64,000 nucleotides of DNA, taken from the IMG/VR virus record IMGVR_UViG_3300012344_000013, positions 1 through 64,000 of that record, one strand, 5' to 3'. Position 1 is the stretch's first letter. Every line of letters begins with the position of its first letter. A program made the position numbers and the translations under genes. The notes below the pieces were generated by a model. It did no database searches and was not told where the DNA came from. It saw only the letters and a program-made list of their open reading frames with translations. Of this stretch, positions 1,168-9,242 are shown piece after piece. The DNA is from a virus (taxonomy: Duplodnaviria > Caudoviricetes).

Positions 1168-1207
1168 AAAGATGTGTTGTTAATAAGGGCAGCACATCTT
1201 TATTTTT
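1168..1207 (+). terminator. Intrinsic terminator
   Basis: AAAGATGTGTTG / CAGCACATCTTT stem followed by ATTTTT, just after the stop at 1151. Confidence 0.7.
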
Positions 1208-1226: not shown

Positions 1227-1853
1227 ATGGCTTTATTTGATAACTATGAGAATTTAGGAAATGCTATACCGAATAACTTATATGCAAGATACCCTGTAAA
1301 AGAAATTTATAAAAAGCCATATGAGCAATATAACGCTCAAGGAGAATTTGTAGGTTATTTTTGGAACTATGGAACTACTGTTAATTTGCAATTTGATTTA
1401 TCAGGAGAAATAACGGTAGAAGGAAATGCTATTATATACACAGTAGCATATCAAAAGCCTACAAAAGTAACAAAAGGTTTTATAGGACAGAAAGCATATA
1501 ACATAGTAGATTTAACTTCTTGGACTTTAGATAATATAGTTGGAGAAGATTATAGTTGGATAGAAGATAGTGATTTTACATATCCTGCAGAAGGTTCTAA
1601 GAATATTTATATAGATGCTACTGATTATTTGAAAGATAAAAAAGTAATAGTATCTTTATATAATTTTAGAATGGAAAAACTTGATGAGAAATTATTCGAG
1701 GGTAGTACTAATATAGTTTATACTATTGATAAAGAATTATCTGATAAATTAGTTAAGGGAATTTATTACTGTTCATTAGTAGTATATGACCCTATAGCTT
1801 TGACATATATAACAGTAATAGATGAGAATTCTTTTCTATTAGAAGTAAAGTAA
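1227..1853 (+). CDS. Virion structural protein with BppU-like/Ig-like adaptor fold
   Basis: C-terminal 'S.KL.KGIYYCSL' resembles 'TANILPGKYYYQI' in 2401..2769; SD GGGAG; lies in the fibre module. Confidence 0.5.
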   Translation: MALFDNYENLGNAIPNNLYARYPVKEIYKKPYEQYNAQGEFVGYFWNYGTTVNLQFDLSGEITVEGNAIIYTVAYQKPTKVTKGFIGQKAYNIVDLTSWTLDNIVGEDYSWIEDSDFTYPAEGSKNIYIDATDYLKDKKVIVSLYNFRMEKLDEKLFEGSTNIVYTIDKELSDKLVKGIYYCSLVVYDPIALTYITVIDENSFLLEVK

Positions 1854-1864
1854 GGAGGTAGATT

Positions 1865-2386
1865 ATGGATATTAGAATAAAAGCAAGATTAAATGCTTAT
1901 GCTAAAATAGATAATCTAAACAATATACCTACTCCTACTGAAGAAGATAAGAATAGTTTATTAGGAATTGATAGTACTGGCAAATACGTATTTTATAAAT
2001 CTATTACTAATGAATATATAGATTATTTATTTAATGGATTTCCTCCTGACCCGCCTATGCCCGTATACCGTAAAGGTGACCTTAACGGTGATGGTTTAGT
2101 TAATATGGAAGATATCTATTTATTTAGAGATTATTTATTAGGTAATTCTGTAGATATACCTCATATAGAAAATGCAGATATGAATGGTGATGGTAAAATC
2201 ACTTTTGAGGATTATGAGATGTTAGTAAGTTTAGTTAAAGATGAAAATCCTGATTTAGTATATGTAGAAGATGAAGATATCGATAAATTATTTAATGGTT
2301 CAGATACTCCTGAAGAACCTGATAAGCCAGGAGAAGACGATGATACAGAATATGTAACTAAATCAGATATAGATAACCTATTCTAA
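1865..2386 (+). CDS. Fibre-module adaptor protein containing a type-I-like dockerin domain (aa ~70-125)
   Basis: Duplicated Ca-binding loop-helix: GDLNGDGLVNMEDIYLFRDYLLG ... ADMNGDGKITFEDYEMLVSLV. Three IDxLF motifs; SD AAGGAGGT. Confidence 0.8.
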   Translation: MDIRIKARLNAYAKIDNLNNIPTPTEEDKNSLLGIDSTGKYVFYKSITNEYIDYLFNGFPPDPPMPVYRKGDLNGDGLVNMEDIYLFRDYLLGNSVDIPHIENADMNGDGKITFEDYEMLVSLVKDENPDLVYVEDEDIDKLFNGSDTPEEPDKPGEDDDTEYVTKSDIDNLF

Positions 2387-2400
2387 AGGAGAGTGATTAT

Positions 2401-2769
2401 ATGTTTAATGTAGATAGAGAAGGTATAATCACTCTTACAAGAGGGGATTCTTTTAGAGTACCTTTATTTATCAATCAAGGTACTTGTATAGATTTAATAA
2501 GATATACTATAAATGATGAGTCAGAAATATATATGGCTGTAACAGAACCTAATCAGCCTTTTGAATTAGCTTTAATAAAAAAGAAATATACTTCAAAAGA
2601 TTTGAACGATAAAGGTGATGTAGAAATATCTTTTAATTCAGAAGATACGGCAAATATATTACCAGGAAAGTATTATTATCAAATTAAAGCTAAATTATAT
2701 GATAAAGAGAAGAACAATTATATAGTAAATACAATAATACCTAAGACACAATTTTTTGTAATAGAGTGA
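2401..2769 (+). CDS. BppU-like/Ig-like baseplate-fibre adaptor
   Basis: 'ITLTRGDSF' start and 'DTANILPGKYYYQIK' pattern typical of phage BppU-N-like small proteins. Confidence 0.55.
   Translation: MFNVDREGIITLTRGDSFRVPLFINQGTCIDLIRYTINDESEIYMAVTEPNQPFELALIKKKYTSKDLNDKGDVEISFNSEDTANILPGKYYYQIKAKLYDKEKNNYIVNTIIPKTQFFVIE
2689..2701 (+). promoter_or_regulatory. Putative phage late promoter motif GCTAAATTATATG (intragenic)
   Basis: Identical 13-mer to the intergenic motif at 27298; upstream of 2780 and 2980. Confidence 0.35.
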
Positions 2770-2779
2770 GGTAATTTAG

Positions 2780-2962
2780 ATGGACTGTAAAGAAGATATT
2801 AGACCTTACTTATATGGTAAATTAAATCAAGAAGTTGAAAGACAACAGTACAAAGGACTTACTACTGATACAGTAGAAGTAATAGTAGATAATGCAGAAA
2901 ACACTATAAGTGCTAATGTAAAACAAATGACTTCTAGGGAAATAGATAATTTATTCAATTAA
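2780..2962 (+). CDS. Small fibre-associated protein ending in EIDNLFN
   Basis: SD GAGGT, 60 aa, shares its C-terminal motif with 1865..2386. Confidence 0.6.
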   Translation: MDCKEDIRPYLYGKLNQEVERQQYKGLTTDTVEVIVDNAENTISANVKQMTSREIDNLFN

Positions 2963-2979: not shown

Positions 2980-5900
2980 TTGGTAAGTTTTTTAGATAAT
3001 GAAGGCTTAAAATACTATGATGAGCGACTTAAAGCTTGGGTAGAAGCTAAAGTTGAGAAGTCAAGTAGCGCTTCAGATAAGAAAATAGAAGAATTAGATA
3101 ATAAAGTAAAAACAGAAGTAGCTCAAGATGTTAAATTGGATTTAACAGAAGATTATGTACTTACCGTTAAACTTTATAGTGAAGAAGGAACATTGATTTC
3201 AGATGATTCAGTAGATTTACCTATTGAATCACTTGTAAAGAATGGTTATTATGATGAAGATAAAAAAGAAATAGTTCTTGAATTACAAGATGGTACTAAA
3301 ATAGAAATCCCTGTAGGAGATTTAGTAGAAAATAAACTCGATAAAACATCTACTAAAAATGCTGTTTACGCTAACGATACTGATGGCAATCCAACAATGC
3401 TGAAGCAGTCAGCAACCAGTGCCGAAAGATATACACTTGTATTAAGAAATGCAGGCGGCGCTATTGTTACTGCATATGGTTCAGAAGATAATGAAGCCGT
3501 AACGGTAAGACAATTACAGGATAGCTCAGATATTTTACAGGATTTTATAAATAAAAAGTTAAACAAAGCCACAGAAAAGAATAAATTATATGGTACACAA
3601 GAAGATGGATACCAGTATTTATATAGTATAAATAAAAATGTAGATGCGCACTCCGTAGCGCAACGTACTGAGTTTGGTACTATTAAAGCATCTTATCCTC
3701 GTGAAAACGACGATGTAGCGACACAAGAATCCGTTTTAGCTGGATTAGATAAGAAATTAAATAGGGTCAATAAAGAATCAGATTATTTATCTGTTTATGC
3801 GGTTACTGACAATGGTAAAGACGCTTTCTTAAAACAAAAATCGGATAAGGCTCAAGCATGGAGTATTCCTTTAAGATTTAGACAGGGACAGATTTTAGCA
3901 GCTCGTTCTGATATAGAAACAGACCCTGAAAAACTTAAAGATTCAGAAGGCAATCCTATAGATACTGACAATTTTTTAGTTACACAAGGACAGTTAAAAG
4001 AAGTAAATACTAAAGTAGATAATAGACTATTAAAAACAAAAAGTACTTACATACTTTATGGAACAACTGGTAAAGATGCAGAAGGAAATACAATTCAATC
4101 AGAATTACCTTTTAGGTCAACCGCAGCTGGTAATTCTATTACACAAAGAACTGCTGAAGGCAGAATAAAAGCAGTTGCTGGTGCAGACTTAAACGATGTA
4201 GTAGTTGTATCACAGCTTAAAGATATTGAAGATGATTTAGACTTAATATCTACTGATATCAATGACGCTACAAATATCTACTATCCTAATAAAGAAGATA
4301 AAGAAGCATTTAATATTGCCAGAAATAATATTAGTGGCTCTAACTCCATTGTAGGAAGTAAAGGATTTAAGATTACACAAGATAATTTCCATAATGCTTG
4401 TCTGGGTTTATTTGTAATTAAACCTGCTGTTCAAGATACCCTTTCAGATATATCTTTAGTTAAAACTATGGTATGTGAGAGATATGGTAGTAGCCAAACT
4501 CTTACTGTAATAGATAGTAATGCATATGTAGATGGTGCTAACGAGTATGTAACATTTTTAACGCAGGAGCCTCCTTATTTATATTCTGAAGATGCTTATA
4601 GTTTTTCACAGATTACATTTAAGAATGAAGCTGGAGATACAATTGGTACATTACAGCCTCCTAAAGACCAAGCAGCAGACCTTATCCAATGGTATGGCTG
4701 TGTATATCAAGAGGGGCAGCTTGAGCCATCTACTAGCTTAAGCGCCTATGTGGAATTACAAGGCAATTATTATATGCCTAAAGCAGATAATATAGGTGCT
4801 TTCTATTATGTAGATATTCCTAATGATGTTATTACACAAAATCTTGTAAACGAACCTACTTGTATAAAAATAGATGCCAACTTTGATTCAGGTACTCGTC
4901 AATCTTATAAAGATTGGGGAGATGACGGAACACTTACTACAGTAATAGCGGAGCAATGTCTTAAAGCAAATTACACTGTAGGTAACAGTTATTTAACTCT
5001 TTTCTTGAAGAAAAATAAAAGAGAAGGTCAAGGTTTAGAACAAGCTCCTATATTCAAAACAAGCTCTTGTATTAGATTTACCGACTATCCTGAGATAGGT
5101 AATGCTACTGTAGGCTTAGGATTTAATAATATCTTTGGCGATACTGATAGAGGATTATTTGATTTTGGATTTGCTAGTGGTTACGGCAATACTTCAATTG
5201 GACGTTATAGTATAACTGGTGGTACTAGAAATAGTGCAGTTTATGCTGGCGTTGCTCTTGGTAATCACAATATTGTTCTTGGACAAAGTGGCTTTGCTGC
5301 TGGTGCAACGAACTTTATTAGCCGAAGTGGTAGCAATGGCATTGCACTTGGCTCTGAGAACGTGTTAAACGGTAAGAACAATGTTGCTGGCGGTAGAGCG
5401 AATAACGTGGGTGGTTTGTATAGTGTTGCACTTGGTTACGGTAACAAAGTAAAGGGCAACAACGGTATAGCACTTGGTTATAATAACAATCAAAGCGATG
5501 ACCTTGAGTTTGCTGTCGGTCTTGGAAACACTTTAACTGGTGAAGGCTCAATAACATTGGGCAGAGCGAACCAAGCATGTGGAAATTACAATGTTTGCAT
5601 AGGGCGAGGTAATATAGCAAACTTATCTACATTTAATATAGTTATAGGCCAAAACAATAATAGTTATGGAAATCATTCACTTACAGTAGGCGTAGATAAT
5701 AAGAATTATATGCGTGCTTCTATTGTTGCCGGATTTGGAAATAGAATTAACAATGACAACCCTCTATCTTCTGATGGTGCAGGTCATTTAGTAGGCGGTA
5801 ATAATAATACTTTAGATACTGGACGTAATAATATCTTGAGCGGCCAAACTTGCCATATTAAATTAAGGGATTCTCTTGTAGTAGGTAATAACCTACAGGA

Positions 5901-7302
5901 TTTATCTGGCGGTTATGGTAAAGCTATATTCGGTAACTATAATGACGACACGTCTTATGCAAGTTTAGTACTCGGTAATGGCACAAAAGACCCTGTAACA
6001 AATGTAGTTACTAGAAGAAATGCTTTTGAAGTACATTCAGACGGTCGAGTAATCACACCGACATCACCTGCATATTTAGATTCGCATACAAAGAGACTTA
6101 CAACAAAAGAATATGTTGATAATAAGATAGCTACTGAACTTGCTGCTGCTAAAGCGGCTTATGAAGAAGTATTCACAATAGATTTATATAAACAGGAAAA
6201 TGGTTATTATTCTGAATCGAAAGTCGACGACATTAAAGCGGCTTATGAAGAAGGAAAAGTACTTAAAGTACATGAAATAGATGAAACTGACGAAGTTCTT
6301 CCGCTTATGTACATTACAGTAGAGGATGATAAAATATCGGCTAGATTTGGATATTCTTATGTAGCGGCAGGTGGCGAAAGTGTAATTACCGTTTCGTTAG
6401 ATTATAGTAGTGAAGATGAAGGCTGGCATAAAGAGATTAGTGAAGGAGATTATTTTAGGTTAAATAAGAATCCTTCTGATAATTCTCTAGTAGCTGCTGG
6501 AAATCTTAATATGGGCAGTTACGGTATTTCAAATATCGGAGAGTTGCATGTTAATGGAGAGGCTTCTATATTTGTTGGCTCTACAGTTAAATCGGAAGCA
6601 GGTACTACTAATAAGCCTAGATTAACAGGTGTAGTCAATGAAGTTGCCGCAGCATTTGTACAATCTGATACTCAAAACACCTACATTCCTCTGTATATAG
6701 GTAATCCTACTAAACCTAAACATGCCGTTAATAAAGAGCATTTAGATGCTATTATAAGTGAATTTATAGCAGAAGAAGATAACGGCAAAACCTTAAAACT
6801 TGTATCTGATACAGCAAGTGATACCGTATTAAAACTTGATTGTGAAGGCGTTAGATGTACTAATACTACTACCCAAGAAGATACAGTAAGCTTTAAGTGG
6901 AATGGAGTTTCTCCTTACACTATAGGAATTACAGAAACCTATGATAGCAGTACTGAAACTTCAACTTATACAACAAATTCCCCGTTTAGTTTTGATGCTA
7001 TTAAAGAAGCTTTTAATAATGCGAGACCTCTTCAGGTATTTTTAACTCAAACAGATACTAATAATAAAAGCTTATTACCCTTAATGAGTGCTGATTTCAA
7101 TGGTAATAATGCTATATTAGTGTTTGGACATTCTTATGTACAGCATGACGGATTAGTAGTTCACTCATCTGCAATAGAATATATTCACAATGAAGGTCAA
7201 GCTGACCAGTGGTTGGATATAAGTGCTTCGTCAGAGAGTCTTACTAAATCAGCTTTTAATTTTGATGAATCAACAGGGACTCTTACAATTGATTTAGATT
7301 AA
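2980..7302 (+). CDS. Large tail fibre/adhesin with YadA-head-like (Hep/Hag) beta-roll repeats
   Basis: TTG start with SD AAGGAGG. N-terminal ~65-aa repeats (KL.K...YA/G...A...R...G.I....D.....Q). ~14-aa G/N repeats (GIALGSENVLNGKN, SVALGYGNKVKGNN) followed by 'LVLGNG...RRNAFEVHSDG'. Confidence 0.75.
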   Translation: MVSFLDNEGLKYYDERLKAWVEAKVEKSSSASDKKIEELDNKVKTEVAQDVKLDLTEDYVLTVKLYSEEGTLISDDSVDLPIESLVKNGYYDEDKKEIVLELQDGTKIEIPVGDLVENKLDKTSTKNAVYANDTDGNPTMLKQSATSAERYTLVLRNAGGAIVTAYGSEDNEAVTVRQLQDSSDILQDFINKKLNKATEKNKLYGTQEDGYQYLYSINKNVDAHSVAQRTEFGTIKASYPRENDDVATQESVLAGLDKKLNRVNKESDYLSVYAVTDNGKDAFLKQKSDKAQAWSIPLRFRQGQILAARSDIETDPEKLKDSEGNPIDTDNFLVTQGQLKEVNTKVDNRLLKTKSTYILYGTTGKDAEGNTIQSELPFRSTAAGNSITQRTAEGRIKAVAGADLNDVVVVSQLKDIEDDLDLISTDINDATNIYYPNKEDKEAFNIARNNISGSNSIVGSKGFKITQDNFHNACLGLFVIKPAVQDTLSDISLVKTMVCERYGSSQTLTVIDSNAYVDGANEYVTFLTQEPPYLYSEDAYSFSQITFKNEAGDTIGTLQPPKDQAADLIQWYGCVYQEGQLEPSTSLSAYVELQGNYYMPKADNIGAFYYVDIPNDVITQNLVNEPTCIKIDANFDSGTRQSYKDWGDDGTLTTVIAEQCLKANYTVGNSYLTLFLKKNKREGQGLEQAPIFKTSSCIRFTDYPEIGNATVGLGFNNIFGDTDRGLFDFGFASGYGNTSIGRYSITGGTRNSAVYAGVALGNHNIVLGQSGFAAGATNFISRSGSNGIALGSENVLNGKNNVAGGRANNVGGLYSVALGYGNKVKGNNGIALGYNNNQSDDLEFAVGLGNTLTGEGSITLGRANQACGNYNVCIGRGNIANLSTFNIVIGQNNNSYGNHSLTVGVDNKNYMRASIVAGFGNRINNDNPLSSDGAGHLVGGNNNTLDTGRNNILSGQTCHIKLRDSLVVGNNLQDLSGGYGKAIFGNYNDDTSYASLVLGNGTKDPVTNVVTRRNAFEVHSDGRVITPTSPAYLDSHTKRLTTKEYVDNKIATELAAAKAAYEEVFTIDLYKQENGYYSESKVDDIKAAYEEGKVLKVHEIDETDEVLPLMYITVEDDKISARFGYSYVAAGGESVITVSLDYSSEDEGWHKEISEGDYFRLNKNPSDNSLVAAGNLNMGSYGISNIGELHVNGEASIFVGSTVKSEAGTTNKPRLTGVVNEVAAAFVQSDTQNTYIPLYIGNPTKPKHAVNKEHLDAIISEFIAEEDNGKTLKLVSDTASDTVLKLDCEGVRCTNTTTQEDTVSFKWNGVSPYTIGITETYDSSTETSTYTTNSPFSFDAIKEAFNNARPLQVFLTQTDTNNKSLLPLMSADFNGNNAILVFGHSYVQHDGLVVHSSAIEYIHNEGQADQWLDISASSESLTKSAFNFDESTGTLTIDLD
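6150..6253 (+). repeat. 20-bp perfect direct repeat TAAAGCGGCTTATGAAGAAG (6150-6169, 6234-6253)
   Basis: Read directly; both copies encode KAAYEE. Confidence 0.85.
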
Positions 7303-7880: not shown

Positions 7881-9242
7881 ATGGCTTATTCAAGAGAAAC
7901 ATATGTAAATCAAATGAGAGCCTGGATAGGTAGAAATGAGTATGATGGTACTCATAAAGAAATTATTGATATTTATAATGCGCATAAACCTCTTGCTAGA
8001 AATTATAAAGTAAAGTATACAGATAGTTGGTGTGCAACAACAGTATCGGCAGCAGCAATAAATGTGGGGTATACAGATATCATTCCACTTGAATGTTCTT
8101 GCGGTAAAATGATAGCATTAGCACAGCAAATGAGAATATGGCAAGAAAATGACGCTTATGTTCCTAATCCTGGTGATATTATCATGTATGATTGGGACGA
8201 CAACGGTAATGGTGACGATACAGGTTGGCCTGAACATGTAGGTGTTGTAGAAACTTGTGATGGTTCAACTATTACTGTTATTGAAGGTAACTATAAAGAT
8301 GCTGTTGGTAGACGTAATATAGCGGTAAATGATAGATACATCAGAGGATTTATTTGTCCTAAGTTTGATAGTAATGAAGGAAGTGGTATTGCGATGAGAT
8401 TTCAACTTTTACAGAATATGAATATGAGAAGTACCCCTAACGGGAATCTCGTTACGAGTATTCCACAGGGTACGATTATCAAGGGGACAGAGCTTAAATC
8501 AAGCGGAACTACACAATGGCTTTATACTGAATATAGCGGTAATAAAGGTTATGTTGCTGTATTGCCCGAAAGTAAGGGTTACGCTAAACAGCTTGGTGAC
8601 CCTAAATTTACTTGCGTAGTAGATTCTTGCAATGAAAAAGGATTTGCTGGTTGGTGTTATGACGGTATTTCCGATACAGAATATGAATTACATTGTTATA
8701 TAATTGGTGCAAACGGAAGAAGTGTTGGCTACCCTGGTATAATGGCTAATATTTACCGTGAGGACTTAAAAAATGCGGGTATAGGTAATGGCAAGCACGG
8801 TTTTAATTGGGAGCATAATTTGTATGCTGACTTAGGTGAAGGTACATTTGATTATACTCTTTACGCAATTACTGACGATGGTTCGAATCCTGGTGTAGCA
8901 ACAGGTAAAGTTACAATTAACAAAATTGTAGAACCTGAACCGACTCCCGAGCCCACTCCAGAGCCAACACCAGAACCTACTCCTGAAGAACCTTCTGATA
9001 TAGAAAAATTACAAGCTGAAATAGATAAACTTAAAGTAACAGTAGAAGAAAACATTAGTGCCATAAACTCATTAGCAAATCAATTGGTGTCAATAGAAGA
9101 TGAAATAGAAAATCTTGAGAAACAAATTGAAGTTAATAATGCTAATGATGGTACTTTATCGACTACAGTAAGTAATCTTATCTTAGATGTAGATGCTTGT
9201 AAGACTACTCTTAATAAGATTAAGAATATCTTTGTAGAATAA
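7881..9242 (+). CDS. CHAP-domain peptidoglycan hydrolase (endolysin or virion lysin): CHAP + SH3b-like + Ig-like + PEPT linker + coiled coil
   Basis: WCATTVS (catalytic Cys), PGDIIMYDW, HVGVV (His), IEGN; 'NMRSTPNG...W....Y.G.KGYV' is SH3-like. Confidence 0.85.
   Translation: MAYSRETYVNQMRAWIGRNEYDGTHKEIIDIYNAHKPLARNYKVKYTDSWCATTVSAAAINVGYTDIIPLECSCGKMIALAQQMRIWQENDAYVPNPGDIIMYDWDDNGNGDDTGWPEHVGVVETCDGSTITVIEGNYKDAVGRRNIAVNDRYIRGFICPKFDSNEGSGIAMRFQLLQNMNMRSTPNGNLVTSIPQGTIIKGTELKSSGTTQWLYTEYSGNKGYVAVLPESKGYAKQLGDPKFTCVVDSCNEKGFAGWCYDGISDTEYELHCYIIGANGRSVGYPGIMANIYREDLKNAGIGNGKHGFNWEHNLYADLGEGTFDYTLYAITDDGSNPGVATGKVTINKIVEPEPTPEPTPEPTPEPTPEEPSDIEKLQAEIDKLKVTVEENISAINSLANQLVSIEDEIENLEKQIEVNNANDGTLSTTVSNLILDVDACKTTLNKIKNIFVE
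8931..8993 (+). repeat. 12-bp degenerate tandem repeat encoding a (PEPT)n linker
   Basis: EPEPTPEPTPEPTPEPTPEEP. Confidence 0.9.

Follow-up and report, generated by a model that had tools for sequence, protein, structure and literature searches.

Dockerins are calcium-dependent plugs by which Clostridia clip proteins onto cohesin sockets, and their folding requires calcium. The presence of such a module in a small gene among the fibre genes of a phage raises the question of what a virus would dock, and onto what. The gene concerned lies in the window analyzed here, which is the first 64 kb of the 126,576 bp (126.6 kb) record of a large uncultured phage. The original prediction, which was made from the sequence alone, described a duplicated dockerin motif behind a Pro-rich linker and between two similar IDxLF-type segments, and proposed that the virion displays this dockerin to host cohesins. 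No account of a dockerin on a virion or phage particle came up in our literature search; the nearest publication is a virome paper reporting dockerin domains on a putative archaeal-virus contig (PMC13452462).

In this study, the module, the protein that carries it, the relatives of that protein and the surrounding genes were analyzed computationally. The module itself is an ordinary type-I dockerin, and it is the carrier and the setting that are unusual.

Results

The source record has a 99-bp terminal repeat and a G+C content of 31%, and all of the genes are carried by the + strand. The phage is a myovirus, the structural genes of which are located in Table 1, and its major capsid protein shows 27–29% identity to the counterparts in large Bacillus, Listeria and Streptococcus myoviruses. 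The fibre and lysis block takes up the first 21 kb, preceding the terminase gene, and contains the 1440-aa fibre, which has YadA-head repeats, together with a CHAP lysin and proteins that carry Gp10_C, Mtd_N and Phage_fiber_rpt domains. The genes around the dockerin gene are fibre/baseplate-like (phrog minor tail, YadA_head, Gp10_C, Mtd_N and Phage_fiber_rpt matches), which agrees with the fibre module in which the original prediction had placed it. The terminator-like hairpin given in Table 1 may mark the start of a transcription unit running from position 1227 onwards and separate units of the late region. No match to the first 12 kb was obtained by megablast against 50,697 phage records, and none was obtained in these records by tblastn with the dockerin protein, a dockerin-less family member or the 208-aa and 122-aa neighbours. 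Positions 7881–9242 encode a CHAP-domain lysin with an (EPTP)n linker and a C-terminal coiled coil in place of the usual cell-wall-binding domain; lying directly after fibre genes, it may be a virion-associated lysin.

Table 1. Positions of the dockerin gene, its parts and the genes discussed in the text (numbering of the window).
Feature	Position	Strand	Evidence or remarks
Terminator-like hairpin	1168..1201	+	14-bp stem followed by a T-run; consensus scan only; between the 382-aa and 208-aa genes
208-aa cassette protein	1227..1853	+	Immediately precedes the small adaptor gene or the Ig-like gene in every case
Dockerin-bearing adaptor protein, 173 aa	1865..2386	+	Strong AAGGAGG ribosome-binding site
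N-terminal family module, aa 1–58	1865..2038	+	MDIRIKARLNAYAK, then one fibre-type repeat, then the first IDxLF peptide
First IDxLF peptide, in IDYLFNG (aa 52–58)	2018..2032	+	
Pro-rich linker FPPDPPMPVYR	2039..2071	+	Read from the sequence; FPPDPPMPV is aa 59–67
Type-I dockerin, aa 70–127	2072..2245	+	Pfam, phmmer against PDB, AF2, Foldseek
Calcium loop 1, D72–D83	2078..2113	+	DLNGDGLVNMED; positions 1/3/5/9/12 are D/N/D/N/D
Calcium loop 2, D105–D116	2177..2212	+	DMNGDGKITFED; positions 1/3/5/9/12 are D/N/D/T/D
Second IDxLF peptide, IDKLF (aa 139–143)	2279..2293	+	Within IDKLFNG, aa 139–145
Third IDxLF peptide, IDNLF (DIDNLF)	2369..2383	+	Extreme C-terminus
122-aa Ig-like beta-sandwich protein, phrog_1084	2401..2769	+	Conserved downstream cassette partner
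60-aa mini-protein	2780..2962	+	Ends in EIDNLFN; homologous to the N-terminus of the 802-aa coiled-coil fibre of L002
1440-aa tail fibre	2980..7302	+	Starts with the LDNEGLKYYDERLK motif; phrog_23595 minor tail protein, YadA_head repeats, motif scan
Large terminase	22135		
Portal	24185		
Prohead protease	27395		
Major capsid protein	28951		
Sheath	34744		

The duplicated dockerin motif is complete, as had been read from the sequence. A Pfam search matched Dockerin_1 (PF00404) to residues 70–120 (nt 2072–2224) with 43.5 bits against a cut-off of 22.9 (E = 3.7e-11), and both calcium loops are canonical, with Thr at position 9 of loop 2. This dockerin is the sole one in the 126.6-kb genome according to a six-frame search, in which it scored 45 bits. 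The helix after loop 1 is IYLFRDYLLG and that after loop 2 is YEMLVSLVKD. Because the two 22-residue repeats share only residues of the loops (seven of the 22 are identical, every one of them within the loops), the helices are asymmetric, as originally described. Loop positions 10/11 likewise read as described, with M-E in loop 1 and F-E in loop 2; cohesin specificity could only be inferred from them.

When PDB sequences were searched with phmmer, cellulosomal type-I dockerins came first, with 5nrk_B (A. cellulolyticus DocCel5, E = 8e-8) as the best match and B. cellulosolvens Cel48, C. acetobutylicum CaDoc0917 and C. thermocellum Doc918 as the next. An AF2 model calculated from a five-sequence alignment had a pLDDT of ∼80 at residues 66–133 and of <50 elsewhere. 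The top 25 Foldseek matches of this model in the PDB were all dockerins (target-normalized TM scores, TMt, of 0.72–0.89), and the best of them, CaDoc0917, gave a TM score by target of 0.84–0.89 (0.84 for 6kgf_B), an r.m.s.d. of 1.1 Å and 39–43% identity. The module is a genuine type-I dockerin, for which the model predicts the three-helix dockerin fold.

The carrier is an acidic protein (pI 4.05) of 173 residues with no transmembrane stretch. It has no signal peptide or hydrophobic stretch, the maximum Kyte–Doolittle 12-residue mean in the first 30 residues being −0.2; it would therefore leave the cell only on the virion or at lysis. Outside the dockerin it is predicted to be mostly disordered, apart from a short helix that the AF2 model places with low confidence over the second IDxLF peptide (aa 136–142). 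The N-terminal module contains one fibre-type repeat of the form 'IPTPTxxDxxxLLGIDxxGxY', and the original prediction was also right about the Pro-rich linker and about the IDYLFNG and IDKLFNG segments on either side of the dockerin. A loose IDxLF pattern has eight matches in all + strand ORFs of the genome, of which four fall in the adaptor gene and the 60-aa mini-protein gene.

With the whole protein as the query, only four clusters were found, which are 80–88% identical and all of which contain the dockerin; a search for related loci in IMG/VR, from which near-identical records may be missing, gave no match to it. A HMMER search with the first 66 residues against 1.84 billion representatives gave 44 matches (E = 3e-12 to 1e-3), most of which are proteins of 59–155 residues that align from residue 1. 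These small proteins start with MDIKLRARLSAYSK and continue with one 'IPTPxxxDAGxVLGVDxxGxYTLF'-type repeat and an IDxLF peptide; their C-terminal part holds one to six further 'VTKxEIDxLF' peptides, separated by acidic linkers, the final one standing at the very C-terminus. The dockerin is absent from all of the small family members found by the N-module search. The 173-aa protein has the features by which we define the family: its N-module aligns from residue 1, it contains IDxLF peptides and its gene lies between the 208-aa and 122-aa genes. No Pfam, PHROG or PADLOC model matches the family, no member was found in 50,697 deposited phage genomes and a literature search for IDSLF-type peptides returned noise only. 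The carrier belongs to an unnamed and undescribed family of small acidic IDxLF-repeat phage proteins, instances of which are the product of ORF 1865–2386, P0005–P0047, L002:6001–6465 and L032:4792–4998.

In IMG/VR phages of 57–205 kb (L002/L035, L003/L037, L004/L038 and L032) the small gene occupies an equivalent cassette, in which a ∼340-aa acidic protein is followed by a protein of 208 or 215–226 residues, the small IDxLF gene, an Ig-like protein of 122 or 123–141 residues and variable long fibres. The 215–226-aa proteins are 40–48% identical to the 208-aa protein of the window and the 123–141-aa proteins are 48–50% identical to the product of 2401–2769, while the small genes encode 68, 74 or 154 residues and are dockerin-less. 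Orthologues of the 208-aa protein (29–48% identity) occur at the equivalent position in L002, L003, L032 and L031, and this protein has no Pfam, PHROG or PDB match. Since the orthologues at the equivalent position in related phages are without it, the dockerin together with its proline linker is an insertion specific to this lineage and lies between the first IDxLF peptide and the second, so that the comparison of orthologues bears out the insert that had been proposed. The base composition of the dockerin segment gives no foreign signal (GC of 0.32, the gene having 0.29 and the genome 0.31). The small gene as a whole is accessory, because it is present in only four of the 31 IMG/VR loci with the Ig-like neighbour and is absent from the nearest relative, L031 (123.5 kb), the Ig-like protein of which is 57% identical to that of the window.

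Sequence variation was compared in 24 distinct variants drawn from the four clusters, the contigs of which reach 129 kb in length and stem from several data sources. Of the 59 dockerin positions 11 are variable, most of them in one sequence only; substitutions recur solely at loop position 6, at residue 126 and in the linker between the repeats, and neither helix shows any change. The flanks differ more often, at 21 of the 58 positions N-terminal to the dockerin and at 16 of the 30 C-terminal to it. In addition, the C-terminal unit EYVTxxDIDxLF is present in one or two copies, and the Pro-rich linker has the length variant PPEPPEPP in P0069. To judge from these variants, the dockerin is under purifying selection, and the invariant helix surfaces suggest a conserved binding face.

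Several features connect the carrier, in each case indirectly, with fibre proteins and the virion. Tandem copies of the N-module repeat are found within large fibre-like proteins, one of which has 'TKAEISSLF' after them. The gene at 2780–2962 looks as if a fibre anchor had turned into a separate gene before the 1440-aa fibre. Furthermore, a motif of fibre N-termini, DxxGLxYYDxxxK, was found in three of the five loci that have the small gene and in none of the 27 without it (the window and 31 IMG/VR loci, which represent few independent lineages); it lies in the window at 2995 and in the 12540 region, and at L032:6765 and L035:7846. This co-occurrence hints at a peptide-and-socket pairing between such fibres and the IDxLF gene.

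The 122-aa neighbour has no Pfam match, and its AF2 model (pLDDT of 90.6) is an Ig-like sandwich. The top five VIA-align matches are all phage virion parts, namely the Sf14 neck (Z = 9.2), the Bas63 connector (8.8), the DT57C and Douge baseplates (8.3 each) and the T5 tail tip (8.0), with the generic Ig background only slightly lower at ∼7.5. A lead from the ESM Atlas was LtfC, on 31% of one cluster. The phrog_1084 family, to which the protein belongs, is widespread in uncultured phages of 45–230 kb in varied gene contexts.

A partner for the dockerin was sought in the phage itself. A search of the 126.6-kb genome with the cohesin model PF00963 gave no candidate at E ≤ 10, and an HMM built from six Clostridium cohesins reached no better than E = 0.24 when run with --max, compared with 1e-87 to 1e-190 for the positive controls. 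As no phage cohesin was found, a cohesin of the host is the simplest partner.

The phage dockerin is 42–60% identical to any bacterial dockerin found, in several Clostridia, and no clear donor emerges. The nearest bacterial dockerin is that of a metagenomic GH5 cellulase, P0049 (60% over 50 residues), the enzyme part of which is 70–76% identical to proteins of Clostridium puniceum, C. sp. SHJSY1 and C. cibarium; these Clostridium genomes contain 3–10 cohesins and 11–16 dockerins, which lie in cellulosome-type clusters. The best matches to the phage dockerin are equally good (44–53%) in samples of 299 Clostridiaceae and 399 Clostridia genomes. Clostridium was rejected as the assigned host for this reason, and neither host nor donor can be assigned from dockerin similarity, because Clostridiaceae and other Clostridia match about equally well (42–53%). 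The segment PEIVDALFEGW at the end of the catalytic domain of P0049, before its dockerin (residues 530–548), resembles NEYIDYLFNGF of the phage protein (aa 48–59); this likeness was set aside as probably due to chance because it is absent from the Clostridium genome homologues.

The Pfam dockerin control matches include Bacteroides and Methanosarcina. A separate observation concerns P0050 (NCBI MBR2215501.1, from a Selenomonadaceae MAG), a 684-aa M23 peptidoglycan endopeptidase with two dockerin modules, i.e. a cell-wall hydrolase docked via a cohesin–dockerin pair in a non-cellulolytic family.

Discussion

The explanation that we favour, at a likelihood a little short of even, is the one put forward in the original prediction: that the product of ORF 1865–2386 is a virion-attached adaptor of the fibre apparatus that displays its dockerin to host cohesins. 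The virion location, the cohesin partner and the benefit are what we infer from the features described above. The adaptor would be made in the cytoplasm without a signal peptide, and the N-module and the three IDxLF peptides would hold it on a fibre or collar complex, with the dockerin pointing outwards on a proline-rich stalk. Given the known biochemistry of dockerins, the module would fold only when the particle meets extracellular calcium. Once folded, it could engage a type-I host cohesin that forms part of a cell-anchored protein or of a cell-associated cellulosome. The phage would in this way gain an initial, reversible hold on host cells or in their vicinity, or on cell-bound cellulosomes on plant fibre, before the main fibres engage. 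The mode of attachment of the adaptor is guesswork, because the AF2 model has a pLDDT of <50 in the flanks.

Four points weigh against display on the virion. The small gene is accessory, being found in few of the loci and missing from L031. Docking to free cellulosomes that have been shed would lead the phage nowhere. Many dockerins outside cellulosome producers have, to our knowledge, no known partner. Finally, the limited identity of the module to bacterial dockerins points to no clear source.

Display by the adaptor may also be conceived on two levels, with the IDxLF peptides clipping the adaptor to the fibres that start with DxxGLxYYD and a swappable cargo slot in the middle of the adaptor, occupied in this lineage by the dockerin, retargeting the phage to host cohesins. 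We regard this plug-in arrangement as possible, if on the whole doubtful. The carrier family may itself show how accessory fibres attach.

It is unlikely, in our estimate, that the protein instead acts off the particle as a soluble factor released at lysis, occupying cohesins on debris, cellulosomes and neighbouring cells, by which it could prevent the trapping of progeny or alter the host cellulosome. A small accessory gene that the nearest relative lacks, the missing signal peptide and a very acidic product with predicted disorder outside the dockerin would suit such a factor. However, the gene keeps a conserved place in a late fibre operon with tight gene spacing, its peptides are held in common with fibre proteins and a single monovalent dockerin per protein would make a weak blocker.

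Somewhat less probable again is a joint within the phage, in which one of its fibre or baseplate proteins would carry a divergent cohesin-like module as the socket for the dockerin. Many of the large fibre proteins do have domains without a known fold, but neither PF00963 nor the Clostridium-cohesin HMM found a cohesin at the level of sequence profiles, and the dockerin-less orthologues show that the cassette works without such a joint. Furthermore, the particle is assembled in the cytoplasm, where calcium is low and a dockerin would be expected to be unfolded; the calcium requirement of dockerin folding makes a part in this assembly unlikely.

We give a similarly low likelihood to a plain calcium-binding module, acting as a calcium-dependent spacer, or as a switch by which the adaptor is stiffened or released extracellularly, and having no cohesin partner. 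The EF-hand models do respond to loop 2, and to this loop only: EF-hand_5 (PF13202) scores 27.6 against a cut-off of 25.9 and EF-hand_1 (PF00036) just misses its own (25.2 against 25.4), and calmodulin-like proteins are also among the phmmer matches in the PDB. However, the Dockerin_1 score far exceeds the EF-hand scores on the same region, position 12 is Asp in both loops, as in dockerins, whereas EF-hands have Glu, and the helix surfaces are invariant in the 24 variants in addition to the calcium loops.

A cytoplasmic hub-binder, in which the acidic ...LF repeats would mimic docking peptides such as acidic Phe-ending C-terminal tails, act on a host or phage protein inside the cell and leave the dockerin incidental, would suit an acidic, repetitive and disordered family with its last peptide at the extreme C-terminus, but is very improbable given that the gene lies in a late structural operon, purifying selection on the dockerin would make little sense in the cytoplasm and there is no PADLOC match.

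The proposed display of a dockerin by the adaptor can be compared with known systems. Like clostridial cellulosomal type-I dockerins, the phage module consists of two 22-residue repeats with DxNxDG...D loops followed by helices; solved comparators are CaDoc0917 from C. acetobutylicum (6kgf/6kgc), DocCel5 (5nrk) and the complex of C. thermocellum Doc918 with the cell-surface cohesin of OlpA (3ul4), and the predicted fold superposes on clostridial dockerins at 1.1–1.5 Å with 38–43% identity. Unlike them, it is set between IDxLF peptides in a carrier of only 173 residues without a signal peptide or any enzyme or scaffoldin domain, its positions 10/11 are M-E and F-E and its helices are fully asymmetric. 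What is distinctive is a stand-alone and very small adaptor of short docking peptides with known dockerin-less orthologues.

The best matches of the adjacent Ig-like protein include virion parts comparable to the collar protein p132 of T5, a phage with L-shaped fibres, and to the proteins of the neck and collar in Sf14 and Bas63 (Z of 8.0–9.2). This modelled likeness would fit a side-fibre attachment site, whereas identity to these proteins is only 7–13% and the Z scores are barely above the Ig background. We know of no equivalent of the IDxLF adaptor in T5, Sf14 or Bas63.

T4 Hoc and other Ig-like decoration proteins are accessory, non-essential binding modules displayed on virions, as in the idea of bacteriophage adherence to mucus. 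Like Hoc, the dockerin proposed to be displayed here would be an accessory module that keeps phages where their hosts are. It differs from Hoc in that the module is another one, the expected ligand is a protein socket and not a glycan, and the expected site is the fibre apparatus and not the capsid.

If the plug-in arrangement is true, it would be a natural counterpart of engineered cohesin–dockerin display and would amount to adsorption via a protein socket, which no paper describes. If virions are indeed tethered to cohesins by the dockerin, phages that infect fibre-degrading Clostridia would exploit the assembly code of the cellulosome for adsorption or niche retention, and phage predation would be directly linked to the machinery that breaks down plant fibre in guts, rumens and digesters.
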